From: an uncultured Prevotella sp.
Lineage (GTDB): Bacteria > Bacteroidota > Bacteroidia > Bacteroidales > Bacteroidaceae
Assembly (NCBI GenBank): GCA_900550635.1
Contig: URSZ01000001.1
Location: 1 to 61,107, forward strand
Reading direction: 5' to 3'
Length of the DNA: 61,107 nucleotides
Each line of letters begins with the position of its first letter. Positions within the stretch are counted from its first letter, which is position 1. Below the pieces are notes generated by a model. The model was not told the origin of the DNA and searched no databases. It worked only from the letters and a program-made list of their open reading frames with translations. The position numbers and the translations under genes were made by a program. Positions 4,944 through 60,815 of this stretch are shown piece by piece.

Positions 4944-5060
4944 GCTTCTTGAAAAGTTTCACGGGACGTAAAAAAATTATCTCTGAGATATTTCAAAATA
5001 TGTCTGACATATTTTAAAATACGTCAGACATATTTTCTGCCGCCTCCAACAGGCAGAAGA
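4944..5060. repeat. Mosaic intergenic repeat, copy 1 (reduced copy; flanks poorly conserved)
   Basis: The core is three 21-bp units at about 4972-5036: AAAATTATCTCTGAGATATTTC / AAAATATGTCTGACATATTTT / AAAATACGTCAGACATATTTT. It lies between the phosphatase-family gene and argS. Confidence 0.8.
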
Positions 5061-5127
5061 GACCAAACGTTCCCGCGGCATGCAGCGGTGCCGGCACACG
5101 GAGTTTGCAGCACTTGCGGGACGGCGT

Positions 5128-6024
5128 TTACTTGAACACGTGCACGGCGGGACGCCCAATCCATGCCTGCGGCTGTTCGAGCCCGAAGATGTAGGCTATC
5201 GTGGCCGCCGTGTCGAAACGCATGTTCACTTCCTTGAACTCTCCTCCCTGCCTGACGTTCTTGCCGGCTATTATGAAGGGCACTTCCATTTCGAGCAGCG
5301 ATTTGCCGCCGTGCCCCTTGTCCTTGCCGCCGTGGTCGCCGGTAAGTATGAATATCGTATCGTCGAACATGCCGGCCTTCTTGGTTGCTTCGATTACCCT
5401 GCCGAGGAACGTGTCGATTCTCTCGAGCGTGGTGTAGTATTCTGGCACGTCAAAGCCGTCGGCATGTCCGGTGTGGTCCAGCTGGTCGTAGCATATAGCC
5501 ACGAAATCGGGTTTCTTTTCCAGTATGTACCGCTCGGCGCGTTCGCATAGCAGGCTCTGCTGCGATTCGTCGAGCACCTCTACGCAATTCACCGCCGCCG
5601 AGTCGATGAGATACTTTATGCCTACCCATTCCATAAGGCATCCCGTCTCGGCTTCGGGCATTTGCTCGCGTATAACGCTGAAAATAGTGGGAAAGATGCC
5701 GCGCTCGTTAACGCAGAACGACGGAATCTCGGGCGTGCGTGAGTTCCATTCGGTGTAGCCGTGCATTTCGGTGCCCGCGCCCATGAACATCGACGCCCAG
5801 TTTATGGCCGACGACGACGGCAACGTGCTGCGCGAATGCAGCGTAAAGCACCCCGAGTCCATAATCTTTCTTATGTTGGGGATGTTTTTTGCCTTGGGAA
5901 CGGAATATCCTCCCCACCCGTCGATGGCGAAAAGCACAACGTGCTTGGCCTTGGGCCGCCCTGCGCTTACGTTGAAAGCCAGCGACACGGCCATTAACAA
6001 GAACAGTAGTTTCTTCATGGTCAT
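5128..6024 (-). CDS. Alkaline phosphatase superfamily protein (nucleotide pyrophosphatase/phosphodiesterase-like), secreted
   Basis: Signal peptide MTMKKLLFLLMAVSLAFNVSA. The metal-site-like motifs FAIDGWG, DHTGH and GDHGG are typical of type I phosphodiesterase/NPP enzymes. Confidence 0.8.
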   Translation of the reverse strand: MTMKKLLFLLMAVSLAFNVSAGRPKAKHVVLFAIDGWGGYSVPKAKNIPNIRKIMDSGCFTLHSRSTLPSSSAINWASMFMGAGTEMHGYTEWNSRTPEIPSFCVNERGIFPTIFSVIREQMPEAETGCLMEWVGIKYLIDSAAVNCVEVLDESQQSLLCERAERYILEKKPDFVAICYDQLDHTGHADGFDVPEYYTTLERIDTFLGRVIEATKKAGMFDDTIFILTGDHGGKDKGHGGKSLLEMEVPFIIAGKNVRQGGEFKEVNMRFDTAATIAYIFGLEQPQAWIGRPAVHVFK

Positions 6025-6248
6025 TATGTTTTAGTTTCAGGTCTACAGTCGGTTGCCTGCACGGCGCATAACGCACCCGTACTTTGGCGCGGCGCGGGGG
6101 AGCGCCAAAAGTTTCACGAACGTAAATTTATGAAAATAATCCGTAACGCAATGCAATCGTGCCGTATTTTGCAGCTCCGTGCAGCAACATGCCGAAGCCG
6201 CACGGGCAAGGCAGCGCGGCAAGTCCGTAAATGTCTGTTTTCAAAGCC

Positions 6249-6385
6249 GGAAAATGAATACTCATTTTCAGCACGTTACGAACCCTCGGAGAAAATGGAA
6301 AATACAAGGCACATATTTTAAAATATGTGCCTTGTATTTTGAAATAGGTCTGAGATATTTTCGCACGGTTTCCCGACGTTTTCTT
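6249..6385. repeat. Mosaic intergenic repeat, copy 2 (hairpin module on the left)
   Basis: GGAAAATGAATACTCATTTTC hairpin, CCCTCGGAGAAAA box, then three units at about 6299-6361. Units 1 and 2 are exact reverse complements (AAAATACAAGGCACATATTTT / AAAATATGTGCCTTGTATTTT). Confidence 0.85.
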
Positions 6386-6589
6386 TATAACAGTTCCAAA
6401 TCTCCGCTCCGGGGCGGCTTTTCCTTTTTTTGTACAACATGTAATCCGGTTCGGCACAGCCAAATTCGGAAACATTTGTTTTCGCTTGCCTCTGCGCCCG
6501 CCTTTCGCTATTTTTGACACACGCACAAGAAATTCACGAAAGAAAACGTTATATTCGCAAGGCAAAACAGAAAAATTCCCGAACAAACG

Positions 6590-7171
6590 ATGAAAGAACT
6601 CGTATTCGCCACCAACAACGCCCACAAGCTGGACGAGATACGCTCCATTCTGGGCGGCAAGATAAAAGTGCTCAGCCTTTCCGACATAGGTTGCCATGCC
6701 GACATACCCGAAACGGCCGACACGCTCGAGGGCAACGCCCTCATAAAGGCCCGCTATGTGTACGAACACTACGGACTCGACTGCTTTGCCGACGACACCG
6801 GGCTTGAAGTGCGCGCCCTCGGCGGGCTGCCCGGCGTACATACCGCCAGGTATGCCTATCCCGACCGCCACGACCCGGAGGCCAACATGGACAAACTGCT
6901 CGGCGAACTGGAAGAAAAAAACGACCGCCACGCAAGATTCCGCACCGTAATAGCGTTAATAGAAAAGGGACGGGAACATCTTTTCGAAGGCGTTGTGGAA
7001 GGCGAAATAACCGCCTCGCGCCAAGGAACCGAAGGATTCGGCTACGACCCCGTGTTCGCTCCCGAAGGCCTGGGCGAGACGTTCGCGCAACTGGGCAGCG
7101 ACATAAAGAACTCCATGAGCCACCGCGCCCGGGCGGCCGAAGCGCTTGCCCGATACCTGGCCGGAGAATAA
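6590..7171 (+). CDS. rdgB: Non-canonical purine NTP pyrophosphatase (RdgB/HAM1 family)
   Basis: 193 aa. [21 protein letters not shown] ... [14 protein letters not shown] ... FGYDPVF is typical of dITP/XTP pyrophosphatases. Confidence 0.93.
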
Positions 7172-7198
7172 GAACATATACGACAAAAGCCACCGAAA

Positions 7199-9499: not shown

Positions 9500-9508
9500 G
9501 CCTCTGCC

Positions 9509-10516: not shown

Positions 10517-10627
10517 GGCAGCGCGTTCCCCGTGCAAAGGCACAAAGCCATTCCGCCCGGAAACCTTTACTCGGCACACGGCGTAAAACTCCCGTCCTTT
10601 ATTGTCCGTTTATTCAACCGTGTTTTC

Positions 10628-10757
10628 TTACCCGTTTCGGAGGGGGCGAAAAATATGTCTGAGATATTTTAAAATATGTCAGACATAATTCAAAATATGT
10701 CCGACATATTTTTTATTTGCTCCCAAGGGGGTATAAAAAACTGAATAACAATATTCA
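10628..10757. repeat. Mosaic intergenic repeat, copy 3 (hairpin module on the right)
   Basis: CCCGTTTCGGAGGGGG box, three units at about 10649-10712, then TTATTTGCTCCCAAGGGGG. Confidence 0.85.
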
Positions 10758-10856
10758 CATTCCCGCACCCGAAACAGACATTTCCCCGCCTCTTGACGTG
10801 CACCCGGGAGCACACCTCGCGCCAATGCTCTCCAAGCGCACTAACGTGTCCGGTCT

Positions 10857-16283: not shown

Positions 16284-16310
16284 ATTTTGAAAACAGACAA
16301 AAAAAGCACA

Positions 16311-16455
16311 CCCCTTTGCCGCTGAAAAACAGGCATGTTAGATGTGCGCAAAAAAAGGTCGGACATATTTCGAAATATGTGCCTTGAATTTTAAAATATG
16401 TCCGACTAATTTTTTTCTTTCTCCCACCCCCGTAAAATCGTGTCATTTTGGCGCA
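16311..16455. repeat. Mosaic intergenic repeat, copy 4
   Basis: Three units at about 16351-16413, then TTTCTTTCTCCCACCCCCG and an AAAATCGTGTCATTTT hairpin. Confidence 0.8.
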
Positions 16456-16571
16456 CCGTTTTTCTTGAACGATAAACCGCCTTTTTGCAGACATTTGCGG
16501 CAGCAGGGCACACCGTTTCCGACACACCCGCGTAAAGGATTTATTTTTCGCCGCAGCAACGAAAAAAGTTA

Positions 16572-16651: not shown

Positions 16652-17914
16652 ATGAGAGTATTACTCGTAAACACTTCGGAACGCACCGGCGGCGCGGCAA
16701 TAGCAGCCAACCGGCTGTGCGAAGCATTGGGAAACAACGGCGTAAAGGCCAAAATGCTCGTAAGCCGCAAAGAAACCGGACTTATCACCGTTACCGAGCC
16801 CCACAACCGTTTGCAGTACAAGCTCAACTTCCTGCGCGAAAGGCTCACCATACTGGCGGCCAACAAATTCCGCCGCCACCGCCTCTTCGAGGTCGACGCC
16901 GCCAACTGCGGCATAGACATCACCGGGCTGAAGGAATTCCGGCAAGCCGACATAATACACCTCCACTGGGTTAACCAGGGATTCATATCGCTTGCCGGGA
17001 TAGCCAAAATAGTAAAATCCGGAAAACCCGTGGTATGGACCATGCACGACATGTGGCCCTTTACCGGCATTTGCCACTACACGCGCTCGTGCGAACAATA
17101 CAAGGACGAATGCGGCAACTGCCCCATACTCTACGGCGGGGGCGCGCCCAACGACCTCTCACACCGCGTGTTCGTTAAAAAACTCAGGCTGCTGGGCAAC
17201 GCACGCATAGCCTACGTGGGGTGCAGCGACTGGCTCGCCAACTGCGCGCGCGAAAGCCGCCTGCTCGAAGGGAAAAGGATACTCAGCATACCAAACCCCA
17301 TCAACACCAAACTCTACCAGCCCGACAGCAAAACAGAAGCACGCAAGGCACTCAAACTGCCGCAAGACAAAAAACTGCTCCTCTTTGCGGCATTCCGCGT
17401 GACAAACAAAATAAAAGGCATCGACTACCTGTGCGAGGCAATACGCATGCTCGTCGAGAAAAATCCCGCGCTCGGCAACGAAATAGCAATCGTGGCCGTG
17501 GGAAAAGAATCCGAGGCACTCGCCGGCGCACTGCCCGTAGACGTCTATCCCATGGGCTACATCACCAACGAACACAGGATGATAAAAACCTACAACGCCT
17601 GCGACCTCTTCCTCATACCCACACTCCAGGACAACCTGCCAAACACAATAATGGAATCAATGGCATGCGGCGTGCCCTGCATAGGATTCGACATCGGCGG
17701 CCTGCCACAGATGATAGACCACCTCGAAAACGGATACATCGCACGATACAAAGATTCAGCCGACTTTGCCCGCGGCATAGAATGGGCACTCTCGCAAACC
17801 GACACACGAGCACTCGGCGAAAAGGCACGCACCAAGGTGATGGCCTCGTTCTCCGAAACGGCAGTGGCAAAACTCTACACCAAACTATACAAAGAGCTTA
17901 GCGGAAAAGAATGA
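16652..17914 (+). CDS. Glycosyltransferase family 4 (GT-B)
   Basis: MRVLLVNTSERTGGAAIAANRL at the N-terminus and the C-terminal EX7E-like region PNTIMESMACGVPCIGFDIGG. The ATG at 16652 is chosen. Confidence 0.85.
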   Translation: MRVLLVNTSERTGGAAIAANRLCEALGNNGVKAKMLVSRKETGLITVTEPHNRLQYKLNFLRERLTILAANKFRRHRLFEVDAANCGIDITGLKEFRQADIIHLHWVNQGFISLAGIAKIVKSGKPVVWTMHDMWPFTGICHYTRSCEQYKDECGNCPILYGGGAPNDLSHRVFVKKLRLLGNARIAYVGCSDWLANCARESRLLEGKRILSIPNPINTKLYQPDSKTEARKALKLPQDKKLLLFAAFRVTNKIKGIDYLCEAIRMLVEKNPALGNEIAIVAVGKESEALAGALPVDVYPMGYITNEHRMIKTYNACDLFLIPTLQDNLPNTIMESMACGVPCIGFDIGGLPQMIDHLENGYIARYKDSADFARGIEWALSQTDTRALGEKARTKVMASFSETAVAKLYTKLYKELSGKE

Positions 17915-18690
17915 ACCACAAGCCCGTAAAAATAACAGTAGCCACAGTTACGTACAACGCCGTGGGCGTGCTGCAACGCACCCTCGACAGCGTTGCCGCC
18001 CAAGACTATGCCCACGTGGAGCACCTAATCATCGACGGCAACTCGCACGACGGCACGCTCGCCCTTTTCCAGCATTACCAGGAAAACAACAGCCGCGCCG
18101 GAGTGATACACGAGGTGAACGCCATAAGCGAACCCGACAGGGGAATCTACGACGCAATGAACAAGGCCCTTGCCATGGCCACGGGCGACTACATCGTGTT
18201 CCTCAACGCCGGCGACGTGTTCCACAGCCCCGACGTGCTCACCCGCATAGCCGCCGCAGCCGGCGGAATGCCCGCCGTAATATACGGCAACACCGACATC
18301 GTGGACAACGAAGGCCGTTTCGTGCGCCACCGCCGCCTTGCACCGCCGCGCCGCCTCACGTGGCACAGCTTCCTGCACGGAATGCTCGTGTGCCACCAGG
18401 CATTCTTCGCACGCTGCGACATAGCACGCACCACCCCCTACAACCTGCGCTACCGCTTCTCGGCCGACTACGACTGGTGCATACGAATCATGCGCACCGC
18501 CGCACGCAGGAAACTGCCAATGAAAAACGCAGGAATCATTGTGGCCGACTACCTCGACGGCGGAATGACCACACAAAACCACCGGCGCTCGCTCATGGAA
18601 CGCTTCCGCGTCATGGCGCACCACTACGGAATCATTACCGCCGCCGCAATGCACCTGTGGTTCGTGGCAAGAGCCGTGGTGAAAAAATAA
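17911..18690 (+). CDS. Glycosyltransferase family 2
   Basis: ITVATVTYNAVGVLQRTLDSVAAQDY ... IIDGNSHDGT ... the DxD-like FLNAGD. It overlaps the upstream stop by 4 nt. Confidence 0.85.
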   Translation: MNHKPVKITVATVTYNAVGVLQRTLDSVAAQDYAHVEHLIIDGNSHDGTLALFQHYQENNSRAGVIHEVNAISEPDRGIYDAMNKALAMATGDYIVFLNAGDVFHSPDVLTRIAAAAGGMPAVIYGNTDIVDNEGRFVRHRRLAPPRRLTWHSFLHGMLVCHQAFFARCDIARTTPYNLRYRFSADYDWCIRIMRTAARRKLPMKNAGIIVADYLDGGMTTQNHRRSLMERFRVMAHHYGIITAAAMHLWFVARAVVKK

Positions 18691-18719: not shown

Positions 18720-18870
18720 CCGGAAAACACAGTTTGCCACCCGGCAAAAAATACGTGCCTTGTATTTCAAAATATGTCCGACATATTTTAAAATATCTCA
18801 GACATATTTTCCGTTTTCTCGGAGAGGCATGTAACTCACTGAAAATCAAGACGCCTTTTTTGTCTGCATA
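18720..18870. repeat. Mosaic intergenic repeat, copy 5
   Basis: Three units at about 18746-18810, then TTTCTCGGAGAGG, CACTGAAAATCAAG and the edge box CCTTTTTTGTCTGC. Confidence 0.85.
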
Positions 18871-21633: not shown

Positions 21634-21790
21634 CCCGCCCGAGAGCAGGAGATATATTATAATGCGTACCCGCAACATTTGCCGGGCACGCATTTTTTAT
21701 ACGCACCTTTTCCGGAAGCCCTGCCGCCACGCGGCAAGGCGGACATTCGCTGCCGCAAAACCCGGGACGGGGAACACCGTTTTTCAACCA

Positions 21791-21965
21791 CGGAAAACGA
21801 AAACTCATTTTCACTCCGTCGCACTCCTCGGGGAGCAAATAAAAATTATGTCTGAGATATTTTAAAATATGTCAGACATATTTCGAATTATGTCAGACAT
21901 ATTTTTGCCCTCCGGAAACCCGCATGAAAACTCGGGGCACAAAAGCTGCCTTTTTTGTCCGTATA
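21791..21965. repeat. Mosaic intergenic repeat, copy 6
   Basis: CGAAAACTCATTTTCAC hairpin, CTCCTCGGGGAGCAAATAAAAA box, three units at about 21841-21905, GCCCTCCGGAAACCCGCATGAAAAC, and the edge box CCTTTTTTGTCCG. Confidence 0.85.
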
Positions 21966-25475: not shown

Positions 25476-25630
25476 ACCCCGGCCCCCTCGGTGCACAAGA
25501 GCGCAACCGCATTCGCGGCGGCACGCACGGCCAATGCGGACAAACAAGGCACCGCGCAGGGCGCATTCCGCCGTAGCGGAAAATGAAAACTACGGCACCG
25601 TTTTTCCACCCCGCCGTACACCGCTTTTTT

Positions 25631-25770
25631 CCAGCCGTTTGAAACGCCCGAAAATATGTCTGACATAATTCGAAATATGTCAGACATATTTTAAATTATC
25701 TCAGAGATATTTTTTCTTTTCTCCCAAGGGGGTAGAAAACTCTCCGATACAACGCGGACAAACACGGACG
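25631..25770. repeat. Mosaic intergenic repeat, copy 7 (may extend left to about 25575)
   Basis: CCAGCCGTTTGAAACGCCCG box, three units at about 25651-25714, TTCTTTTCTCCCAAGGGGG, and the edge box GCGGACAAACACGG. Confidence 0.85.
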
Positions 25771-30636: not shown

Positions 30637-30776
30637 CGTTTTTTGTCTGCCGCCCCGTAAAGGGGGTCAGAGGAAATTAAAATCAGGTCTGAGAAAATTC
30701 AAAATATGTCTGACATATTTCGAAATATGTCAGACATATTTTTGCCCACCCCTAAAAGGGTGTTTTTCAGCGCCCG
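30637..30776. repeat. Mosaic intergenic repeat, copy 8
   Basis: Edge box CGTTTTTTGTCTGCC, three units at about 30679-30743, then TGCCCACCCCTAAAAGGGTG. It lies between convergent genes. Confidence 0.85.
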
Positions 30777-33506: not shown

Positions 33507-33533
33507 CGGCACGCCGCACGCGCAACGTGCACC

Positions 33534-33756
33534 GCTCACCGGCAGACAAAAACGGAGCGAAAAACGAAGCGGGAAAACAGCCGCCCGGGGCGCGGAAAAG
33601 TGAAAACTGATTTTCACGCCGTTAAACCCACATGGGAGCAAAGAAAAAATATGTGCCTTGTATTTCGAAATCCGAGCCACTAATTTTAAAAAGCAAGCCA
33701 CTAATTTTTCGCCCCCCGGAAACCCTTTCCGAAACCGCCCCGGAAAGGCCGACAAA
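33534..33756. repeat. Mosaic intergenic repeat, copy 9; left member of the 223-bp direct repeat flanking the R-M cassette
   Basis: Aligned by eye to 36525-36747 (offset 2991). It is identical except for one C/T difference (CCCCGGAAAGG vs CCCTGGAAAGG). The three units are at about 33644-33709. Confidence 0.95.
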
Positions 33757-33876
33757 ATGCAGACACCGCGAACCTTTTGCAGGCAGCCGACGTTTTTATA
33801 AGGATTTGTACGACATGTTTTGCACGAACAGGGTAACTTTACGGCATATTATCATGAAAGCATAAAGCAGTGCATT

Positions 33877-34389: not shown

Positions 34390-34391
34390 CG

Positions 34392-35114
34392 CTACCGGTA
34401 TTTGCCCTCTATCTCCGACCAGCGCGGTATAGACAGTCTTTTTCCATAAAATTTTTGGTATGATTGCAACAAGTCGGCCAGCCACGTGCCGGCTTGGTTG
34501 TGCGTCTTGGGGTTTTGGTACACTGTTTCCTGCATTGCCGAAATGAAATCCTCCAGGCAATCGAAAGGCTTGAACTTGCAAGCCTTTGATGAGAACCAAA
34601 CGGCGGGACGTATCTTGTGTACCACATTGTCCTTGATTTGCAGGTTCAACGGCCATTTTTCCATGCTGCGGCACATGCCCCACAAGTTTTCAAGCCACAA
34701 ACGTTTGATAGTAACATACCCGTCGTCAGACATGTCATATCCAAAAACCAAGTATTTGCAATAAAGCATATAAGGCTTCTCCTTTATTTCAGCTTGGAAG
34801 CTGTTGAAATCAGCAATGTCGAAAGCGGGCGACTTGCTGTTGTTGAACGCCTTAACCTCAAGCAAATCTGCCGTTGTATCTTCGGGGTTCAAATAAAAGT
34901 CGGGCGGCATTTGGCTGTTGGGGTTAGGCTTGTAGTCAATGCCTTTCTTCCGCAGCCAGCCTTCGAGCCATTCCTGCATGATGTTGCCTACTACATCGCG
35001 CTGTTTGACAATAATATCAACATCACCCAAATAAAAGCGTATTTGTCCTTTTACTTCAAGGATTTTATCGTCATCTACTAATTTCCGGTAAAGTTCTTCT
35101 GCTGTTAATTTCAT
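34392..35114 (-). CDS. Type II restriction endonuclease, PD-(D/E)XK-like; specificity unknown
   Basis: 240 aa, immediately downstream of the m5C methyltransferase on the same strand. The candidate catalytic motif is PPDFYL ... DLLEVKAF. The function rests on context plus that motif. Confidence 0.65.
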   Translation of the reverse strand: MKLTAEELYRKLVDDDKILEVKGQIRFYLGDVDIIVKQRDVVGNIMQEWLEGWLRKKGIDYKPNPNSQMPPDFYLNPEDTTADLLEVKAFNNSKSPAFDIADFNSFQAEIKEKPYMLYCKYLVFGYDMSDDGYVTIKRLWLENLWGMCRSMEKWPLNLQIKDNVVHKIRPAVWFSSKACKFKPFDCLEDFISAMQETVYQNPKTHNQAGTWLADLLQSYQKFYGKRLSIPRWSEIEGKYR

Positions 35115-35125
35115 GGTTAGAATTT

Positions 35126-36427: not shown

Positions 36428-36524
36428 TTTATGAATCGCTATCAACTCCTTTACGCTTACAAAAATACAACAAAGCTTGCTATTTGGGATTTTCCGCTTG
36501 TAATTTGTTACGGTCTCGTGCTCT

Positions 36525-36747
36525 GCTCACCGGCAGACAAAAACGGAGCGAAAAACGAAGCGGGAAAACAGCCGCCCGGGGCGCGGAAAAGTGAAAACTG
36601 ATTTTCACGCCGTTAAACCCACATGGGAGCAAAGAAAAAATATGTGCCTTGTATTTCGAAATCCGAGCCACTAATTTTAAAAAGCAAGCCACTAATTTTT
36701 CGCCCCCCGGAAACCCTTTCCGAAACCGCCCTGGAAAGGCCGACAAA
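36525..36747. repeat. Mosaic intergenic repeat, copy 10; right member of the 223-bp direct repeat flanking the R-M cassette
   Basis: See copy 9. The three units are at about 36635-36700. Confidence 0.95.
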
Positions 36748-36975
36748 CGCGGACACCATTTTACGCTGCTGCAAAACAGGTGAAGAATCATTCGCTTTCT
36801 GCCGCGGCCTGCGAAAAATTATTTGCAAATTCACGGCCCGGCGTTCGGCATTATTCCGCGGAAATCCATATTTTTGTAAAATATGTTTAACTCCTTACGC
36901 TTTCCCGCTCCTCAGCGACGGGAAGCGGGCCTATTTCTGTTGCCACGATATAAAGGACTTTAAAAAGAACATGCC

Positions 36976-37464
36976 ATGAAAAGGAAATTCTTGTTCACAC
37001 TGCTGCTCCTTGCGGCCGCATTCTGCAGCCCTGCCCGGGCCATGGACGTGTACGTGTACATAAACGGGAGCTACGTACCCGTAAACGTTTCCGAAAACAT
37101 CTACAAGATTGTCTTCGAAGATGAATACACACATTTCATCACAGCCTCGGGCGAGACGGCCACGTTAAGGAACGAAGCCTTCTCGTTCCTCACTTTCCGC
37201 AAGCTGGAAACGCCCGTAGGCATAAACGCCGCAAAGGCCGAAGCCGTCACCATAACCTATGAAAACGAAGGCATACGCGTGAAAAGCGCAAGCGTGCCGG
37301 CCAACGTAAGGATTATCGACACGGCCGGGAACGTAATGGCCGACATAACGCCCCGCAACGCCGACATGTTCTTCTCGCTGTGCGGAATGCCGGCCGGAGT
37401 GTATATTGTAACAGCCGGCGACGGGAAAAACGTAACCGTAAAGAAAATAACGAAAAACAAGTAA
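36976..37464 (+). CDS. Small secreted protein with a T9SS C-terminal sorting domain
   Basis: Signal peptide MKRKFLFTLLLLAAAFCSPARA and the C-terminus VRIIDTAGNVMADI...GVYIVTAGDGKNVTVKKITK. Confidence 0.65.
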   Translation: MKRKFLFTLLLLAAAFCSPARAMDVYVYINGSYVPVNVSENIYKIVFEDEYTHFITASGETATLRNEAFSFLTFRKLETPVGINAAKAEAVTITYENEGIRVKSASVPANVRIIDTAGNVMADITPRNADMFFSLCGMPAGVYIVTAGDGKNVTVKKITKNK

Positions 37465-37468
37465 ACCC

Positions 37469-39742: not shown

Positions 39743-39915
39743 CATCCCGCGGCAGGTAGCCCCGCAAACACACAAACGCGCAAACACCGCAACAGCAGGC
39801 GAGGCCATGCAAAGGCCGCGCCTGCATTTTTTCCTAACCGGTGTGCCTGTTGCGGGTGCTTGGGGGCGCAAAAACAGCCCGTCCCGCCGCACCGCAAAGC
39901 GCGTCTCCCGCGCGG

Positions 39916-40149
39916 TGCGGACAAACGCCCGCATTTGTCCGCATTTTCAGGAGCATTTTCAAACGGGTTTTCAGGGGGCAAAAAATATGTCCGACATATT
40001 TTGAAATAGGTCTGACATATTTTAAAATACAAGGCACATATTTTTTCTTTGCTCCCATGTGGGGTAAACGCACTGAAAATCAGTTTTCACTTTTCCGCGC
40101 CCCGAACGGCCGTTTTTCCGCCCCGGTTTTCGCTCCGTTTTTGTCTGCC
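39916..40149. repeat. Mosaic intergenic repeat, copy 11; full-length, same subfamily as copies 9/10 but inverted
   Basis: Left-edge hairpin GCGGACAAACGCCCGCATTTGTCCGC, CAAACGGGTTTTCAGGGGG box, three units at about 39980-40044, TTCTTTGCTCCCATGTGGGG, GTGAAAA-type hairpin, and right-edge box CCGTTTTTGTCTGCC. The reverse complement of the right half is close to 33541-33650. Confidence 0.9.
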
Positions 40150-40222
40150 GCGGCAACGGCGGCACGGCATAAGCATGTTGAATATAGTACCTCCGGCGCG
40201 TTGCAGTTTCTCGCCATAATGG

Positions 40223-40230
40223 TAACTTTG
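40223..40230 (+). promoter_or_regulatory. -7 promoter box (TAnnTTTG)
   Basis: TAACTTTG lies 24 nt upstream of the priA ATG. Confidence 0.5.
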
Positions 40231-40253
40231 TACCGCAAACCACGAAACAGCAC

Positions 40254-42830: not shown

Positions 42831-43000
42831 ACACTGAAAAACGAAAACCGTTTTTCGACTTTTTACCCTCCCCTTGAAGCCAAGAAAAAATATGTCTGAG
42901 ATATTTTAAAATATGTCTGACATAATTCGAAATATGTCAGATGTATTTTTTATTTGCTCCCACTCGGGTTAAATATGCAGAAAACCAGTTTTCATTTTCC
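42831..43000. repeat. Mosaic intergenic repeat, copy 12
   Basis: Three units at about 42885-42950, then TTATTTGCTCCCACTCGGG and a GAAAACCAGTTTTC hairpin. Confidence 0.85.
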
Positions 43001-43039
43001 GGCATGAACCTCCCTGCAACTGCCAGGCCCATAAAGCCA

Positions 43040-43111: not shown

Positions 43112-43131
43112 AATACTCGTCCTCGTTGAAG
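43112..43131. repeat. att-like direct repeat, left (duplicated DUF2795 3' end, encodes FNEDEY-stop on the minus strand)
   Basis: 19 of 20 positions are identical to 46564-46583. Confidence 0.75.
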
Positions 43132-43359
43132 TATGTATTCCTTCGTGGTTATCAATGACATCAGTTAATAATATGTGATTTCGGGGACAGCTATTTCACC
43201 ATGAATGGCAATAAAACGCCATTGTCACTATCTCCTCATCACGTTAATTATCACTCAAATAAGTCTTTCAAAGAACCTATTTATACATGCAAAAGTACAA
43301 AGAAGATGGGTAATCGCAAAGTTTTGTGTTTCCTATTTTGCTGCCTCATAATAAAATCG

Positions 43360-43367
43360 TACCTTTG
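43360..43367 (+). promoter_or_regulatory. -7 promoter box (TAnnTTTG) for the abi gene
   Basis: TACCTTTG lies 70 nt upstream of the ATG at 43437. Confidence 0.45.
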
Positions 43368-43436
43368 CAACAACAGATTCCGCCACGCTTCCCGCAGAAC
43401 AGCGTACCAGGGCGGAACTTTTGCTTTATATAGGTT

Positions 43437-44333
43437 ATGGAATACACAAAACAGCCGATAGATTACCCACAGCAAATCCAAAAGCTGAAAGAACGGGGAT
43501 TGATAATCAAAGACGAAAGACAAGCATTAGAACAACTCCGCATTATTAGCTATTTCCGTTTGGCGAATTACCTGCGACCAATGGAAGAAAATAAGGAAAA
43601 TCATATTTTCAAGCCAAACAGCACATTTGAGAATGCCCTAAACCTTTATTATTTCGACAAAGAACTAAGGGCTTTGATATTTACAGCCATCCAAAGCATT
43701 GAAATAGCCTTACGGACAAAAATCATACATCACGTTTCGTTGAAGTATGGCGCATTTTGGTTTACGGACATTAATCTTTGTACCAACCAACAAATGTTTG
43801 CTGAAAACCTGAACCACATTCAACAGGAATTGCAACGTTCAAAAGAAGATTTCATTTTAGAACACTTCGCAAAATATACAAGTCCGACATTTCCGCCTGT
43901 ATGGAAAACATTGGAAGTCGTTTCTTTCGGTACGCTCTCCAAATTATACTATAATCTGTCAGACAAAGCACTAAAGAAACAGATTGCACAAGATTTGAAT
44001 GTACCACAACATCTTTATTTTGAAAGTTGGATAAAATCCACTACCGTATTACGAAATTGCATTGCTCATCACGCACGTATTTGGAATCGCCGTTTCCCCA
44101 ATATGCCACAACTCCCTAAACGGATGCCGAAAACATGGATAAGCAACACACACCTCCCCATGATGAAACTTTATGCCCAATTATGTTGCATTACCTACTT
44201 GCAGAACAGCATCCACCCTAACAATTCTTTCAAACAAAAGCTGATTGCACTTTTAGAAGCACATCCAAATGTTGATGTAAAAGCGATGGGCTTTCCTACA
44301 AATTGGCGTGAAGAACCCTTGTGGAAAGACTAA
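43437..44333 (+). CDS. Abi_2 (AbiD/AbiF-like) abortive-infection family protein
   Basis: 298 aa. The N-terminus QQIQKLKERGLIIKDERQALEQLRIISYFRLANYLRP and the later AHHARIWNR match the Abi_2 family pattern as I recall it. Confidence 0.8.
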   Translation: MEYTKQPIDYPQQIQKLKERGLIIKDERQALEQLRIISYFRLANYLRPMEENKENHIFKPNSTFENALNLYYFDKELRALIFTAIQSIEIALRTKIIHHVSLKYGAFWFTDINLCTNQQMFAENLNHIQQELQRSKEDFILEHFAKYTSPTFPPVWKTLEVVSFGTLSKLYYNLSDKALKKQIAQDLNVPQHLYFESWIKSTTVLRNCIAHHARIWNRRFPNMPQLPKRMPKTWISNTHLPMMKLYAQLCCITYLQNSIHPNNSFKQKLIALLEAHPNVDVKAMGFPTNWREEPLWKD

Positions 44334-44489
44334 CAAATATTCAAAAATGTTTCTTTGTATAGGCTTGTGAATATATAGAAATACCAATATTTGATGTTTG
44401 TTCTGCAAATCACAATATATCAATAAGTTATGCTATTTTCAAATATTCACTTCTGATTGTTTTTGGATATCTTTATTGATATAGAAAAG

Positions 44490-44519
44490 AAAAGGTTGGC
44501 CGTTGCTGACCAACCTTTT
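44490..44519. terminator. Bidirectional intrinsic terminator between convergent genes
   Basis: AAAAGGTTGG-CCGTTGCTGA-CCAACCTTTT: the stem is flanked by an A-run and a T-run. Confidence 0.65.
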
Positions 44520-44530
44520 GGCATAATTTA

Positions 44531-45052
44531 TTATTTTGTTTTATCAACATAAGGACTGAACGTATATGTCAACAGTTCTCCATTGTTTAGTTCTACCTGA
44601 AATGTCGCTTTCTTTGTTACCTGTAATCTGCGCAAAAGGTCAATAGCATCTTGGTAATCTGCAAGATTAACTGCATTACCTATGGGCCGTTCTGTGTTTA
44701 TAAGGATGTTTTCTCCATCTAACATTAAACTTACAATTGTCATTTTTTCATTGAATGACGGATCTCTTGGATTTTCAGTTTTTGAAGCATCAGCAAGTCT
44801 AAGATACGCCATAGTATGGACATGCGTAGTAACTGCGAATACCAACACAATGGGAATGTTGTTAATCATATGATAATTATCACTATTTATAAATACCCTT
44901 TGTTGATCGTTATTAACAGTAAACCATCCTTTCTGTTTGTAGAAATCTGAAATTTCACTACTATCAACAGTGTTTGAGGTACGGTTGCCACACGCCGTGG
45001 TAAAGACGATAGTCAGTGCTATCATACTTAAGAAGTAAGCAAACTTTTTCAT
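44531..45052 (-). CDS. Hypothetical lipoprotein
   Basis: MKKFAYFLSMIALTIVFTTACGN: a signal peptide plus a lipobox-like Cys. I recognise no family. The ATG at 45052 is preferred to the TTG at 45070. Confidence 0.6.
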   Translation of the reverse strand: MKKFAYFLSMIALTIVFTTACGNRTSNTVDSSEISDFYKQKGWFTVNNDQQRVFINSDNYHMINNIPIVLVFAVTTHVHTMAYLRLADASKTENPRDPSFNEKMTIVSLMLDGENILINTERPIGNAVNLADYQDAIDLLRRLQVTKKATFQVELNNGELLTYTFSPYVDKTK

Positions 45053-45070
45053 CGCAAATGTTATTACCAA

Positions 45071-45313
45071 TTATACACCTTGCTTAATTTTCTCAGCTTT
45101 GATTCCTTTAACGAAAGAAGCCAACTCGTTGACTAAAAATTTTTCTTCTTCTGAAGAATCTTCTGTTGCAGTATGATAGCATTGGGAAATAGTTTCAATG
45201 ATATTTCCACATAGCTCAACTGTAAGCGTAAGATTTTCCTTGCAGAGTCCGTAAAGGCTTTTAATAGCCAATTCTTTCTGTTCTTCCTGTGCCATAATAC
45301 GTTTTTTTAGCAT
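45071..45313 (-). CDS. Hypothetical small acidic protein (80 aa)
   Basis: An ORF directly upstream of, and co-directional with, the lipoprotein gene. I recognise no family. Confidence 0.45.
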   Translation of the reverse strand: MLKKRIMAQEEQKELAIKSLYGLCKENLTLTVELCGNIIETISQCYHTATEDSSEEEKFLVNELASFVKGIKAEKIKQGV

Positions 45314-45665
45314 CTATGGCCCTGCGATGCGGTTTAATACTTACTTTAATATTGGTAGGCATAAAAGAGAAAAGCGAGGCCGTCATTCTGCCTCATCTAC
45401 TGCGTAGGGTTGGACTCCCTGTAATATGGATAAGGAGAACGAACAGCCCCACTTGGATGTATTTCGTGCTGATATACGAATACAAACCAAGAGAGCGTCC
45501 TTCCCACATATTCCGATATTACTTTTGTAAAGTGTCCAATTTTACGCAGTCGGAATAAGCGAAAATGCGCTTTCTTTCAATATGTCTGCACACTATTTGC
45601 TAATAGTGCGTAACAAAGATACGTACTTTCTTTGGAAGAACGCTCAATAATCCAACAAATTAACT

Positions 45666-46399
45666 CTAAAAATCTAATAGGTTGTATGTTTCAAGCAACT
45701 CTTTTTCTCTTATGTCCAAGTATATTTTAGTAACAGACACATAGGAATGATTGAAAAGCTCTGATAACCTCATCAACGCCATATTAGCATTCTCACCTGC
45801 TGACTCAAAAACCTTTCGCCCAAAAGTCTTGCGCATACTATGAGTAGGGAAATGCTCGATTTTAAGATTGTACTTTTTCTTGATTCTCTTAAATAATATA
45901 TTGATTCTTTGTGTTATATACTATTTTTGGGGTAATCCATCAAGAACTGCCTGAACTTATGTAACGGACAGTAAGCATTATCACGAACTGACACGCCGAC
46001 CTTGCCTAACTTGTATTCCTGCTCTATTGTTTCTATGGCATAGTTCACAAAGTCTGTCTTTGCCGATTTGCCGTTTGGTCTACCCTGTACAAATGCCCGA
46101 AGATTATCTATTGTGAGTCTGCTGTTCTTCTGCATGAACTCATAAATCTGTTCGTCTATGGTACGCCGCTTCTGTTCCAACTGATTATTCAATCTTGCAA
46201 TTTGAAGGTGTTTCCTGCTTACGGCTTTGTTGGCCTCATCCCAGTAAGCCTCCTCAATCCAAACACCCGTTTCCGTCCGTGCGTGTTTCGTGCCCATCAC
46301 GTACTCAAGATAGATTGGCAACTTTCCGTTCGTGTCGGGCTTCCTGTCCTTACGCAAATAAAACTTGCCCGTCAGTTTGCTTGCCTTTACTCTTCCCAT
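45666..46399 (-). pseudogene. Tyrosine recombinase (Bacteroidetes-type integrase), internally deleted and frameshifted
   Basis: 45914-46399 encodes only the N-terminal arm-binding and SAM-like part (161 aa, KFYLRKDRKPDTNGKLPIYLEY...). A different frame at 45666 to about 45905 encodes only the C-terminal end (...HFPTHSMRKTFGRKVFE...HSYVSVTKIYLDIREKEL, carrying the box II His/Arg and the catalytic Tyr). The middle of the catalytic domain is missing. Confidence 0.8.
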
Positions 46400-46561
46400 A
46401 ATTTACTATCCGTTTTTTAGGAATATGCGATGCGAAGATAACGATTTTGGGGACAGTTATTATGCCATAAAAGGCGGTAAAACGAGAAAGTGGGGATTTT
46501 TGTTGTCCCCACTTCCGTTGATTTTCAGTCTGTTGTTCAATACTTTACGCCGACTTTCGGC

Positions 46562-46783
46562 TTAATATTCGTCCTCGTTGAAGAGGAAATCTTCTTTTGT
46601 TGGGTAATCCGGCCATACGTCTTCGATGGTTTCGTAGACATCGCCTTCGTCTTCGAGTTCCTGCAGGTTTTCTATCACTTCGAGTGGAGCTCCCGAACGC
46701 ATGGCGTAGTCTATCAGTTCGTCTTTAGTTGCGGGCCAGGGCGCATCTTCAAGTTTCGAGGCTAGTTCTAATGTCCAATACAT
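46562..46783 (-). CDS. DUF2795 domain protein
   Basis: MYWTLELASKLEDAPWPATKDELIDYAMRSGAPLEVIENLQELEDEGDVYETIEDVWPDYPTKEDFLFNEDEY. The ATG at 46783 gives the usual length of about 73 aa. Confidence 0.85.
   Translation of the reverse strand: MYWTLELASKLEDAPWPATKDELIDYAMRSGAPLEVIENLQELEDEGDVYETIEDVWPDYPTKEDFLFNEDEY
46564..46583. repeat. att-like direct repeat, right (inside the intact DUF2795 3' end)
   Basis: See 43112-43131. Confidence 0.75.
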
Positions 46784-47669: not shown

Positions 47670-47747
47670 TAATTTTGTTACGTGTTTTTCATAGTATTAG
47701 ATTTAAGGTTAACATTAAGATTAGGGTTACGGAGGTAACCCTTTTTT
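47670..47747 (+). ncRNA. Candidate orphan small transcript: -7 box, six TTANNN hexamers, intrinsic terminator
   Basis: TAATTTTG at 47670-47677. TTAGAT TTAAGG TTAACA TTAAGA TTAGGG TTACGG at 47697-47732. GGGTTAC-GGAG-GTAACCC followed by TTTTTTATT at 47724-47747. No co-directional CDS is nearby. Confidence 0.3.
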
Positions 47748-47926
47748 ATTTCCGGCCAACCTTATCCCCGTATTTGTGTATCATGACAGGCTGCCGCGCG
47801 GCCGTGCGGACGCAGCGGCAGGGTGGTTTCCATTTCCATAGTTAGGCGCGATAATTTGTTTTTGATACGCGATGAATTTCGTATCCACGAGTGGAAAATT
47901 TGTGTCTTAAAAAGGCGTTTTCCGGT

Positions 47927-48086
47927 GCGGAAAAATGAAAACTGGTTTTCAGCGCATTTATCCCACATGGGAGCAAATAAAAAATACAAGGCACATATTT
48001 CAAAATATGTCTGACCTATTTTAAAATATCTCAGACATATTTTTGCGAGGGTCGAAACGGGGTGTCCGGAATAAAGACAAACAGCG
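47927..48086. repeat. Mosaic intergenic repeat, copy 13
   Basis: ATGAAAACTGGTTTTCA hairpin, TCCCACATGGGAGCAAATAAAAAA box, three units at about 47979-48044, and an edge box AAGACAAACAGCG. Confidence 0.85.
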
Positions 48087-51469: not shown

Positions 51470-51529
51470 CTCGTTTGCCCATATACTGCAAACGAGGACA
51501 ACACCTAACTACAAATACACAAAACCAAA

Positions 51530-51565
51530 GCCGCATGGTTGCCGTAGCGAGTGCAACCATGCGGC
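51530..51565 (-). terminator. Hairpin terminator downstream of asd
   Basis: GCCGCATGGTTGC-10 nt-GCAACCATGCGGC, a 13-bp stem. On the minus strand it is followed by TTTGGTTTTGTG. Confidence 0.5.
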
Positions 51566-51612
51566 AATATACCTACATGTTTTGCGGGCTTAAAAGCTCC
51601 TTGCGCAAAAAA

Positions 51613-54340: not shown

Positions 54341-54525
54341 TCCCGAAGGCGAAAAAGTGAAAACTAATTTTCAGTGCGTTATACCCCCTTGGGAGAAAAG
54401 AAAAAATACAAGGCACATATTTCAAAATAGGTCTGACATATTTTAAAATATGTCAGACCTATTTTTTACCCCTTGAAAACCCGTTTGAAACTTGCCCCTA
54501 AAGTGCAGACAAATACGGACTCGCG
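54341..54525. repeat. Mosaic intergenic repeat, copy 14 (full-length; hairpin on the left)
   Basis: GTGAAAA-CTAA-TTTTCAG hairpin, CCCCTTGGGAGAAAAGAAAAAA box, three units at about 54400-54466, CCCCTTGAAAACCCGTTTGAAAC, and the edge box GCAGACAAATACGGACTCGCG. Confidence 0.9.
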
Positions 54526-54682
54526 TCCCTTTTGCGGCAATAACACGCCACGAAAAAGAAGGCTTCGCGTTTTTTTGCCCGAAGCGGAAACGCACGTTCC
54601 GCACAATGGGATGAAAAACAAAGCGGCAGGCTTCCGGAATGTCTCCGGCTGCCTGCCGCCATGCCCTATAGCAATGTGTTTT

Positions 54683-58681: not shown

Positions 58682-58774
58682 GCCCGCACAAAAATCCCCA
58701 AATGCCCGAAGCAAAAGCAGCGCACGGCAAACACGGGACGACCACCATAAAAATACAGATACAGAAACAACGAA

Positions 58775-59932
58775 ATGAACGTTCCATCCGAATTCGACGA
58801 GATACGACCATATAATCCCGAAGAGTTGCCCGGAGTTTTCGAAGAACTTATAAACGACGAAGACTTCCGCAAGGTAATTTCACAGGTATTCCCCGCAATG
58901 CCTTTCGAAGCATTTGCAGCAAGGCTGCGCGCATGCCGCACAAACCAGGAAGTGCAGGAAGCATTCGCTTACGGCTTGCTCGGCGACATAGAGAAGAAAT
59001 GCACAAAAGGCGTAAGCATGGACACCGACGGGCTTTCGCCCGAAAAACGATACACATTCGTCTCCAACCACCGCGACATAGTGCTCGACTCGGCCTACCT
59101 GTCGCGCGAACTGGTGCGCCACCACTTTCCATGCACCGTCGAGATTGCCATAGGCGACAACCTGCTTATTTATCCGTGGATTCGCCGCGTTGTCAGGGTC
59201 AACAAGTCGTTCATCGTGCAGCGCTCGCTGCAAATGCGCGAAATGCTAATGAGTTCCGCACGGATGAGCCGCTATATGCACTATGCCATCAACGTGAAAA
59301 AAGAAAACATCTGGATAGCACAGCGCGAAGGCCGGGCCAAAGACTCCAACGACCGCACCCAGGACTCGATACTGAAGATGATGGCCATGGGCGGCAAGGG
59401 AGATGTGATTGAGAGCCTTACCGACCTGCACATCGTGCCGCTGAGCATTTCATACGAGTACGACCCCTGCGACTTCCTCAAGGCTAAAGAATTCCAACAA
59501 AAGCGCGACAATCCCGACTACGTAAAGACCCGCGAAGACGACCTGCGAAACATGCAAACGGGAATCTTCGGCTACAAAGGACATGTGCATTACAAACCCG
59601 CGCCATGCCTTGACGAATGGCTCGCAAAACTCGACAGCCGCATACACAGGAACGAGATTTTCGACATAACAGCCAAGCACATCGACCGCGAGATATACAA
59701 AGGCTACCGCCTGTATCCCGGGAACTATGCCGCAGCCGACCTGCTGCTCGGCGATAAAAGATTTGCAGGCAAATATTCTGAACAAGAGCTGCAAAACTTT
59801 GAAAAATACATCGCCTCGCGCATTGAAATGGTAGACCTTCCCGACAAGGACACCGCTTTCCTGCGCGAAAGGCTTCTCACCATGTATGCAAACCCCGTAA
59901 TAAACAAGGAACGCGCCCTTGCTGAAGAGTAA
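58775..59932 (+). CDS. Glycerol-3-phosphate/lysophospholipid acyltransferase family protein
   Basis: A VSNHRDIVLDSAYL acyltransferase-type motif. 385 aa. The position after ddl is conserved in Bacteroidales as I recall. Confidence 0.7.
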   Translation: MNVPSEFDEIRPYNPEELPGVFEELINDEDFRKVISQVFPAMPFEAFAARLRACRTNQEVQEAFAYGLLGDIEKKCTKGVSMDTDGLSPEKRYTFVSNHRDIVLDSAYLSRELVRHHFPCTVEIAIGDNLLIYPWIRRVVRVNKSFIVQRSLQMREMLMSSARMSRYMHYAINVKKENIWIAQREGRAKDSNDRTQDSILKMMAMGGKGDVIESLTDLHIVPLSISYEYDPCDFLKAKEFQQKRDNPDYVKTREDDLRNMQTGIFGYKGHVHYKPAPCLDEWLAKLDSRIHRNEIFDITAKHIDREIYKGYRLYPGNYAAADLLLGDKRFAGKYSEQELQNFEKYIASRIEMVDLPDKDTAFLRERLLTMYANPVINKERALAEE

Positions 59933-60611
59933 CGGCAAGCACAAAACGAAACCAACGCCCATTAATGTGACGCATTTTATATATGCTGCCCTCGTAGCGT
60001 CCACAGCGGCGTTTTTCATATCGTGCGAGGACGATAATTACCGCGCTGCAACCCAACGGCTCGACCTTGTCGACTTCATAAGCGACGAAAACGGGCTTTC
60101 CCACAAAATGGTGCTCGACAACGGCGACACGCTGCGCCTCACTCACCCCGAAGGTGGCTTCCTGCCCGACACGATATGCCGCTGCCAGGCTGTGTACAGG
60201 CCTGCCGGAGGGGCAGACAACGGCGTTGTCGAGGTAACGTCCCTGGGGCAAATCCTTACATTGCCCCCGCTGCGATATAACATCGTGTATGCCGACCCCG
60301 TAAGCGTAACATCGGCATGGTTGGGCGGGAACTACCTGAACCTAAGACTTCTGCTCCGCACAAAAGGCTCGGCGCACGCCATCGGGTTCGCCTTTCTGGG
60401 CTATTCCGAGGCGGACAACGGAGCGCAGACGCTCGAACTGATGTTGTATAACAACAGCGGAAACGACGACGAGTATTTCTCGCGCGAGACATTCGTGTCG
60501 TGCGCACTGCACGGCTACATCGACAACCTGAAACCGGGACGCGATTCCGTGGCAATAAAAGTGAACGAATACGACAAGGGTTTCGTAGACCACAGGCTCC
60601 CCCTGCGATAA
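59919..60611 (+). CDS. NigD-like lipoprotein
   Basis: Lipobox AAFFISCEDD, and a C-terminal part resembling the NigD-like domain. The real start may be the GTG at 59967 rather than the TTG at 59919. Confidence 0.6.
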   Translation: MLKSNGKHKTKPTPINVTHFIYAALVASTAAFFISCEDDNYRAATQRLDLVDFISDENGLSHKMVLDNGDTLRLTHPEGGFLPDTICRCQAVYRPAGGADNGVVEVTSLGQILTLPPLRYNIVYADPVSVTSAWLGGNYLNLRLLLRTKGSAHAIGFAFLGYSEADNGAQTLELMLYNNSGNDDEYFSRETFVSCALHGYIDNLKPGRDSVAIKVNEYDKGFVDHRLPLR

Positions 60612-60633
60612 CCCTTTACGGACATATAAAATC

Positions 60634-60815
60634 CGCGAGTCCGTATTTGTCTGCACTTTTGGGGCAATTTTCAAACGGGTTTTCAGGGGGTAAAAAATAG
60701 GTCTGAGATATTTCAAAATATGTCTGACATATTTTGAAATATGTGCCTTGTGTTTTTTCTTTGCTCCAAAGGGAGTATAACGCACTGAAAATTAGTTTTC
60801 ACTTTTTCCTTCCGA
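60634..60815. repeat. Mosaic intergenic repeat, copy 15; same subfamily as copy 14 but inverted
   Basis: CGCGAGTCCGTATTTGTCTGC edge box, CAAACGGGTTTTCAGGGGG, three units at about 60692-60757, TTCTTTGCTCCAAAGGGAG, and CTGAAAATTAGTTTTCAC. Its reverse complement aligns along the whole length of copy 14. Confidence 0.9.

Follow-up and report, generated by a model that had tools for sequence, protein, structure and literature searches.

The fifteen elements considered here lie between the genes of a 61,107-nucleotide contig of an uncultured Prevotella sp. (URSZ01000001.1 of assembly GCA_900550635.1; this whole stretch is referred to as the window) and form one mosaic repeat family, which resembles several described kinds of bacterial intergenic repeats. 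BOX elements of Streptococcus pneumoniae have the organization boxA - boxB(n) - boxC, in which the boxB units, 45 bp each, vary in number. In Neisseria, Correia elements end in 26-bp inverted repeats and duplicate a TA target, and dRS3 is a 20-bp inverted repeat targeted by phage integrases. Repetitive extragenic palindromic (REP) elements of Enterobacteria and Pseudomonas, together with the bacterial interspersed mosaic elements (BIMEs) and the REP doublets forming hairpins (REPINs), are associated with REP-associated tyrosine transposases (RAYT/TnpA_REP). A defining trait of REPs is the conserved tetranucleotide, GT[AG]G or CGTC, that the hairpin carries at its foot (PMC3733652, PMC6006769), and the hallmarks of REPINs are imperfect palindromes and inverted doublets that are present in many copies between genes, persist vertically and come in genome-specific variants (PMC3116915, PMC6006769). 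REPs linked to subclass 2.6 of these transposases come mainly from non-Bacteroidales Bacteroidetes (e.g. Flavobacterium, Zobellia), and a few are from other phyla (PMC6006769). In Porphyromonas gingivalis, BrickBuilt, a MITE (miniature transposable element with inverted repeats), is always intergenic and consists of a leader, spacer-less tandem 23-nt units and a tail; an element contains 1 to 22.8 of these directly repeated units, and a genome contains only 19 elements (PMC4596501).

The family of the window is closest to REP/BIME/REPIN in behaviour, to BrickBuilt and BOX in layout, and to the Neisseria mosaic elements in population behaviour. Like REP, BIME and REPIN sequences, it is strictly extragenic and occurs in hundreds of copies; its short imperfect palindromes often form inverted doublets and are combined with other short motifs into mosaics, and it shares with them long vertical persistence, genome-specific variants and a role as recombination sites. 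It differs from them in being built of AT-rich 21-mers without a GTAG or CGTC foot, in having these units joined directly at a constant 21-bp phase, mostly in threes and without intervening linkers, and in that divergent gaps are freely used and no RAYT gene was found in ~1.6 Mb of surrounding DNA. BOX is likewise a modular intergenic repeat whose end modules enclose tandem internal units with possible secondary structure, but it is unrelated in phylum and sequence, and we know of no unit-cassette swapping described for it. The Neisseria dRS3/RS and Correia elements are also dense intergenic mosaic repeats and recombination hotspots flanking exchanged gene cassettes; neither 26-bp terminal inverted repeats, a TA duplication nor a dRS3-type integrase target was seen here. 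BrickBuilt comes from the same order, is intergenic and has the same leader-units-tail plan, and its copies may hold a partial leader or tail (PMC4596501), whereas the units of the present family are dyad-symmetric or inverted, are almost always three in number and belong to an estimated several hundred elements per genome. The comparison with BrickBuilt is one of described layout, its 23-nt repeat being published as a sequence logo (PMC4596501). The family fails defining features of each of the described groups: it lacks the GTAG foot, has neither terminal inverted repeats nor a target duplication, and does not consist of direct tandem units in variable number.

With a probability of roughly one half, we consider the elements to be an undescribed family of non-coding, non-autonomous mosaic repeats of the REP/BIME/REPIN kind, maintained by recombination between the operons of human-gut Prevotellaceae-type Bacteroidales. 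It is a high-copy, intergenic and orientation-free family whose core consists of three phased units and in which inverted doublets are enriched, and it is present in several gut Prevotellaceae-type species. The positions of the elements are stable within species, their arrays change quickly, with units or the whole array being replaced, and the elements are the crossover points of rearrangements and of insertions flanked by duplicated copies. The sequence-only reading, which first listed the fifteen copies, had found no described family to match. In agreement with that, a literature search with the unit and box sequences returned no relevant paper, a topical search gave analogues only, Rfam yielded no match (see below), and the elements are unlike the Bacteroidetes REPs linked to Y1 transposases. 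REP-like families are well studied in Proteobacteria and barely described in Bacteroidales, a dominant order of the human gut. This one is unusual in that its units are phased at exactly 21 bp and fixed at three, and in that arrays are exchanged like cassettes, with the architecture kept while the sequence changes.

All sequences of the fifteen listed copies are present at their positions, and an nhmmer profile built from them matched the same 15 loci and no others at E<1 in the window (Table 1). The 19-bp unit core AAATATGTCNGACATATTT, with at most 2 mismatches allowed, occurs 28 times in the window and was absent from each of 100 dinucleotide-preserving shuffles. The copies align over ~166 columns with a mean column identity of 67%, with the modules in the order that had been proposed, and 15 of 15 are located between genes backed by Pfam matches or database gene calls; the open reading frames (ORFs) that overlap elements, e.g. 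6128-6931 and 39841-40257, are spurious. The descriptions of the copies as occurring in both orientations (8 forward, 7 reverse) and as AT-rich islands (element GC 0.32-0.50 versus ~0.55 for the window) were equally accurate. The claim that nearly every gap holds a copy was too strong: of the 23 gaps that reach 100 bp, 14 hold a copy, in addition to copy 15 at the window end, and four of the nine empty ones lie inside a foreign low-GC island. The picture of an old family divided into subfamilies holds as regards its age, but copies 9 and 10 represent a recent 242-bp direct duplication and do not count as two separate old members. Apart from this recent origin, the sequence-only reading overlooked that the units have dyad symmetry, that they are arranged as inverted doublets and that the elements are active in recombination.

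In the core of an element, three 21-bp units with A4/T4 arms abut head to tail, preceded by an A-run and followed by a T-run. The consensus of the units is AAAATATGTCnGACATATTTT, with no GT[AG]G (GTAG) or CGTC at the hairpin foot. The common unit is a 10-1-10 palindrome, AAAATATGTC-n-GACATATTTT, and most units of the window are palindromic; over the 15 window copies, 79.9% of the cells within 21-bp units are paired, versus 27-53% when the partner columns are slid. The L side of the core carries the TGAAAACTGATTTTCA palindrome followed by the CCCnnnnGGGAGCAAAGAAAAAA box, and the R side carries GCCCCCTGAAAACCCGTTTGAAA. The modules around the core are interchangeable and form mosaics, which include a CCCCCTGAAAACCCGTTTGAAA box and TTTGTCTGC edge boxes, the latter often as inverted pairs; in element 12 a module of the hairpin and GGGAGCAAA (L) flanks the array on both sides. 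The edge box TTTGTCYGY has 14 matches in the window against 2.7 expected, 12 of them within an element or on its edge; a further one lies 95 bp upstream of element 7. Edge boxes are found in either orientation, and a TGTCTG core is common to them and to the unit. The general layout is an L module, three abutting 21-bp units without spacers and an R module, i.e. leader, units and tail. Among the matches listed from all sources, 198 of 300 arrays have three units, 101 have two and one has four. These units are dyad-symmetric or inverted, rather than direct tandem repeats in variable number as in a minisatellite.

Neighbouring units tend to face each other. The centre bases of adjoining units are (T,A) in 111 cases and (A,T) in 20, so the head-to-head arrangement is preferred. 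To count inverted doublets, arrays were defined by junction periodicity alone, with the inner sequence ignored, which gave 227 distinct arrays. A perfect 21/21 inverted doublet is present in 21 of them, versus 3.5 expected and a maximum of 8 in 500 shuffles, and doublets with at most one mismatch are present in 57 (15.5 expected); inverted unit pairs, i.e. 42-bp palindromes, are thus enriched about six-fold. Such an AT-rich 42-bp palindrome is predicted to be able to form a hairpin or cruciform. In element 2, units 1 and 2 (ACAAGGCACAT and ATGTGCCTTGT) are exact reverse complements and make up a perfect 42-bp palindrome, as do units 2 and 3 of element 8 (30701-30742), with a 19-pair stem. The computed folding of element 14 as single-stranded DNA runs through the doublet, with -25.5 kcal/mol and z = -4.95. 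A second unit family, of the GCCACTAA type, comprises the units TTAGTGGCTCGGAT, TTAGTGGCTTGCTT and AGCAAGCCACTAAT, whose inner sequence is unrelated and not self-palindromic. Arrays of this type nevertheless keep three units, the A4/T4 arms and two units that are exact reverse complements, giving a 42-bp doublet. That unit families unrelated in sequence keep one architecture suggests that structure, or the way in which units are copied, is constrained, and this constraint is testable.

Further loci were found with an exact pattern across the unit junction and were sampled because they contain this pattern. A second species is represented by a metagenome-assembled genome, CAJKQZ01 (uncultured Prevotellaceae), whose genes are ~78% identical to those of the window. 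It holds at least 141 copies in 485 kb around the matches (71 on the plus and 70 on the minus strand), and none of the 141 listed copies is inside a predicted gene, with 79% of that DNA being coding. The expected intergenic enrichment was therefore borne out, and so was the suggestion of hundreds of copies per genome, given 15 in the 61-kb window and these 141 or more in loci chosen around matches. With about one inter-operon gap in two occupied, several hundred copies are to be expected in a genome of ~2.3-2.6 Mb. Among the matches listed for the second species, copies occupy 56 of 133 tandem, 19 of 31 convergent and 13 of 28 divergent gaps; 31 have the same orientation as transcription and 25 the opposite one, and in tandem gaps the median distance is 122 bp to the upstream stop codon and 213 bp to the downstream start codon.

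Gut-metagenome contigs of several species contributed at least 226 copies over at least 120 loci (898 kb), so the family is not confined to the region in which it was noticed. All of these loci with a source label come from the human gut; their local G+C ranges from 0.36 to 0.58 and their identity to the two reference species from 70 to 99%. The taxonomic breadth of the family, which is common to several uncultured Prevotellaceae-type species, rests on metagenome contigs. An old, maintained family had been proposed, and it is indeed found in at least two species sharing only ~78% nucleotide identity in orthologous genes and in contigs of several further species, with orthologous gaps often occupied in both diverged genomes. 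In a small, choice-biased sample of 17 orthologous gaps from genome pairs 72-85% identical, both were occupied in 6 cases, one in 4 and neither in 7. Where both species have an element in the gap, each genome carries its own element flavour, and the second species contains a ~175-bp subfamily of 35 copies at least 90% alike with unrelated flanks. Together, the shared gaps, the genome-specific flavours and this subfamily indicate that elements have long resided at their sites and have been homogenised inside each genome. At some time in the past, at least one episode of copying to new sites must also have taken place.

Many of the matches in the CAJKQZ01 contigs (L007-L080) lie within ~50 bp of contig ends. 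This crowding indicates that the repeat fragments short-read assemblies of these genomes, and with many contigs ending inside a copy the family visibly breaks metagenome assemblies. A 2979-bp contig with one element (L030) is binned as 'uncultured Firmicutes', which is probably an error. No viral contig matched the pattern, and a phage origin was rejected for this reason.

Contigs of the same species (strains labelled L...) were collected by exact protein look-up. No presence/absence differences were found among eight elements (15.9-41.7 kb) in six strains of the window species, nor among 16 of 16 elements of the second species in strain pairs at 97-99% identity. The comparison of close relatives that the sequence-only reading had proposed thus revealed no polymorphism among more than 24 elements. 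At the same positions, divergence of the arrays is 2-40 times faster than that of coding sequence or of other DNA in the flanks, and it comes in unit-sized blocks. Strain L003 differs from the window at 6 of 19,816 coding sites and at 14 of 1,197 element sites, strain L001 by 0.9% in coding sequence and 5.7% in elements, and in the strain pairs of the second species the divergence is 4.3% for elements versus 2.0%. As the fastest-evolving sites observed between near-identical strains are in the elements, these could be useful for strain typing. In strains L002 and L003, unit 1 of element 9 (33647-33665) is the exact reverse complement of unit 2; five bases have changed together, which results in a perfect 42-bp palindrome. 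Read from the sequence, this is the signature expected of quasi-palindrome correction by template switching, a mechanism known from quasi-palindrome mutagenesis, or of conversion from another copy. Whole arrays have been swapped with unchanged L and R flanks at elements 14 and 15 in L090 and at element 15 in L094, and at element 13 strains L089 and L190 have an array of the GCCACTAA type. A ~2.9-kb segment is present in only one of two second-species strains (L044 1846-1849 versus L196 3871-6808), with its junction off the repeats.

The elements also mark rearrangement breakpoints and cassette insertions in natural populations and are in this sense a hotspot of genome change. Strains L081 and L083 match the window with 99.9% identity as far as 48044, within element 13, and continue with RibD-PrmC-RecX. 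In most strains GlyRS-Fer4 stands to the left of the element 13 array, next to LicD; this arrangement at the same array implies that the window is a recombinant, formed within ~95 bp of identical L box plus array. PriA-island-FopS is joined to LicD in the window and L082, and to RibD-PrmC-RecX in L081 and L083, so that members of one species are set apart by a large rearrangement, an inversion or a translocation. The loci concerned are L081 17791-21414 and, in reverse complement, 250-420 of L087 and L093.

Elements 9 and 10 are 242-bp direct repeats that bracket a restriction-modification (R-M) cassette. The cassette is absent from L001, L004 and L006, in which 33767-36517 of the window is missing in the alignment, and is present in the window and in L002, L003, L005 and L081-L084. 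In some strains its methylase is called as 231 aa instead of 433 aa, and may be disrupted there. In L122, element 14 is duplicated around a 570-bp insert (1700-2268; ~54520 in the window), which contains a 149-codon ORF without a start codon, apparently a gene fragment; the extra copy of the element has units of the GCCACTAA type.

To account for these observations under a REP-like, recombination-maintained family, we suggest that intergenic sites were seeded in the past, probably by a trans-acting factor recognising the hairpin or the TGTCnGACA core, and that concerted evolution is today the main process by which the family stays uniform within each genome. The palindromic doublets would form hairpins or cruciforms, and hairpin-driven template switching (quasi-palindrome correction), together with ectopic gene conversion among hundreds of copies, would produce the concerted evolution. 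A benefit to the host, if any, would be secondary and is unproven.

Several results weigh against this interpretation. No Y1/HUH transposase was detected in ~1.6 Mb around more than 380 copies, either by tblastn with the IS608 TnpA and E. coli RayT sequences or with an HUH...Y regular expression. All-against-all clustering of 2254 ORFs from element-centred loci revealed no multi-copy protein family, only small clusters resembling orthologues of different genomes. Neither the ends of the 35-copy subfamily, which are fuzzy with conservation fading outward, nor the filled and empty gaps between species show terminal inverted repeats or a target-site duplication, and there was no clean pair of a filled and an empty site, the intergenic DNA being too diverged between species to set boundaries. 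Given that no signature of transposition was seen, it is copy number alone that points to past transposition. The selection of loci by the pattern biases both densities and co-occupancy upwards. Positional stability, co-occupancy across species and the fixed three units would also be expected of a functional cis element. In 368 units from the matches listed, non-palindromic combinations at the S positions outnumber palindromic ones: beside the centre, GTCTGAG or its reverse complement CTCAGAC occurs 243 times and the palindromic forms 123 times. This position being mostly non-complementary, most units outside the window species are asymmetric. Mismatches within units are mostly W/W and S/S transversions, a pattern that may fit degenerate protein half-sites as well as hairpins.

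The elements could instead be functional cis elements, in which a dimeric protein would bind 7-1-7 inverted half-sites (AWTATSTC n GASATAWT) and make the arrays nucleoid-organising or insulating sites between transcription units, or in which the AT-rich palindromes would form cruciforms that buffer supercoiling. This would agree with one copy per inter-operon gap, in all gap types and without polarity, and with positions that are stable within species and often common to different species. The fixed three units with their exact 21-bp period would also suit it, since two helix turns per unit would place three dimers on one helix face, as would W and S positions behaving as independent half-site positions instead of base pairs, and a TGTCTG core recurring in the edge boxes. 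We nevertheless regard it as unlikely, for arrays of the unrelated GCCACTAA type substitute at the same loci in strains ~97-99% identical (99.9% at the R-M locus), which a single sequence-specific protein cannot explain; moreover, 9 of the 23 window gaps of at least 100 bp have no element, and no candidate protein was identified. A related and rather improbable idea takes account of the exchange itself: the arrays might be more than selfish repeats and form a maintained inter-operon device, namely a phased platform or cruciform palindrome that organises or insulates transcription units and contains an actively exchanged inner cassette. A dedicated recombination system would then exchange this cassette among loci and strains, with the arms of A-run and T-run as exchange points, and the family would at the same time provide gene cassettes, the R-M system for instance, with portable landing sites.

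Mobility could also be explained more directly. In a REPIN-RAYT system, a Y1 (HUH) transposase with a single-copy gene would use hairpins of single-stranded DNA to copy the inverted 21-mer doublets. What suits it is that the units are imperfect palindromes with an excess of inverted doublets, are present in many intergenic copies, persist vertically and differ in flavour from genome to genome. Bacteroidetes, moreover, own the TnpA_REP subclass 2.6, with atypical REPs, but these REPs are GC-rich with a GCT[AG]G foot, and none is from Bacteroidales (PMC6006769), so the described Bacteroidetes REPs were rejected as an identity for the family. Together with AT-rich stems, the missing GTAG or CGTC foot, units that abut in phase without a spacer, and the fact that REPs normally flank RAYT genes while no Y1 gene was found in the searches described above, this makes a REPIN-RAYT system doubtful. 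Still less probable are classical MITEs, i.e. deletion derivatives of a DDE insertion sequence moved by cut-and-paste or copy-and-paste into intergenic DNA. They would account for the young ~175-bp subfamily with 35 near-identical copies at unrelated loci and for some near-symmetric copies, with hairpin-like ends (CCTGACATTTTTGTCAGG ... CCTGACAAAAATGTCAGG) or, in element 12, the L module on both sides; hairpin-like inverted ends are, however, limited to 4 copies, the boundaries are fuzzy and lack consistent terminal inverted repeats and target-site duplications, none of the more than 24 elements compared at 97-99% identity is polymorphic for insertion, and no related transposase gene was found in the sampled DNA. 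Least of all do we favour an RNA-level element in 3' or 5' untranslated regions, acting as a bidirectional terminator, mRNA stabiliser or RNase III target, as REP and Correia sequences can. A-run and T-run bracket the arrays, long hairpins are possible, and copies in tandem gaps are nearer to the upstream stop than to the downstream start; against it, RNAalifold predicted no pairs and no consensus structure, the difference between G·T and A·C mismatches on the sense strand (78 versus 59) is not significant, there is no orientation bias, divergent gaps are occupied, genes carry their own GC-rich terminator hairpins beside the elements, and the stems are AU-rich with no Rfam match. Rfam 15 gave no match at the gathering score in the elements of the window, FopS alone being recognized outside them; at E up to 5 there was none over 33400-40300, and in five related loci only a tRNA was found.

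Some simpler identities were set aside. An intrinsic terminator was rejected on account of the AT-rich stems, the lack of orientation bias (31 versus 25), the use of divergent gaps and the separate GC-rich terminators. Such terminator hairpins, e.g. GCCGCATGGTTGC...GCAACCATGCGGC, were seen at gene ends apart from the elements, at 51520-51570 and 54630-54670 of the window and at L069 3770-3800. As regards a promoter role, the Bacteroidetes -33 TTTG / -7 TAnnTTTG motifs misfit in spacing when inspected by eye, and sigma-70 matches inside the arrays were disregarded as not relevant to Bacteroidetes.

Table 1. Repeat elements of the window and the gene cassette bracketed by two of them
Feature	Position	Strand	Evidence and remarks
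Element 1	4932..5064	+	nhmmer E=3e-28; units 4975-4993, 4996-5014, 5017-5035; L side degenerate
Element 2	6245..6382	+	nhmmer; divergent gap between 5128-6024 (minus) and 6590-7171 (plus)
Element 3	10614..10769	-	nhmmer E=1e-41; three units at 10651-10711
Element 4	16307..16468	-	nhmmer; 28 bp past HPPK stop codon, 197 bp ahead of GT4 start codon
Element 5	18726..18864	-	nhmmer; between GT2 gene and rpoN
Element 6	21790..21948	+	nhmmer; centre base of unit 3 (21895) varies among strains
Element 7	25611..25753	-	nhmmer; between CotH gene and leuS
Element 8	30665..30774	+	nhmmer; convergent gap; L side carries an insertion
Element 9	33526..33767	+	Left direct repeat of restriction-modification cassette; units 2 and 3 of GCCACTAA type
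Vsr / NgoBV-like endonuclease / Dcm methylase cassette	33820..36427		Gene calls, Pfam families
Element 10	36517..36757	+	Right direct repeat of cassette; 1 mismatch to element 9 over 223 bp
Element 11	39937..40101	-	nhmmer E=1e-44; fullest copy; edge hairpins 39917-39942, further edge box 40140-40148
Element 12	42835..43004	-	nhmmer matches on both strands, each with L module; symmetric copy
Element 13	47923..48064	+	Unit 3 end (48044) is a strain-level rearrangement breakpoint
Element 14	54348..54509	+	nhmmer; same gap occupied in second species (L069 6592-6696)
Element 15	60650..60810	-	nhmmer; after last gene of window

The window has a G+C content of ~55% and contains ordinary chromosomal genes, among them those for ArgRS, PorZ, RpoN, LeuRS, PriA, Asd, EF-P and Ddl. 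Element 1 occupies the gap between the 3' end of a phosphodiesterase gene (5128-6024, minus) and the start of the ArgRS gene (2938-4755, minus).

A low-GC island (0.30-0.42) at 43131-46562 carries an Abi_2 gene, small ORFs and a fragment of an integrase Arm-DNA-binding domain. It is absent from strain L190, where the alignments to the window overlap by 22 bp (L190 2248-2269), and its ends do not match the positions of the repeat elements. At L152 642-703 (18242-18248 in the window), ~60 bp are extra in L152 within the glycosyltransferase gene 17911-18690, and this difference could be a real indel or an assembly artefact. The FopS small RNA (Rfam RF04319), by which the window can be assigned to Bacteroidetes, was recognized at 47682-47751 (+) with 72.6 bits, versus a gathering score of 56, and is located 176 bp upstream of element 13, outside that element.

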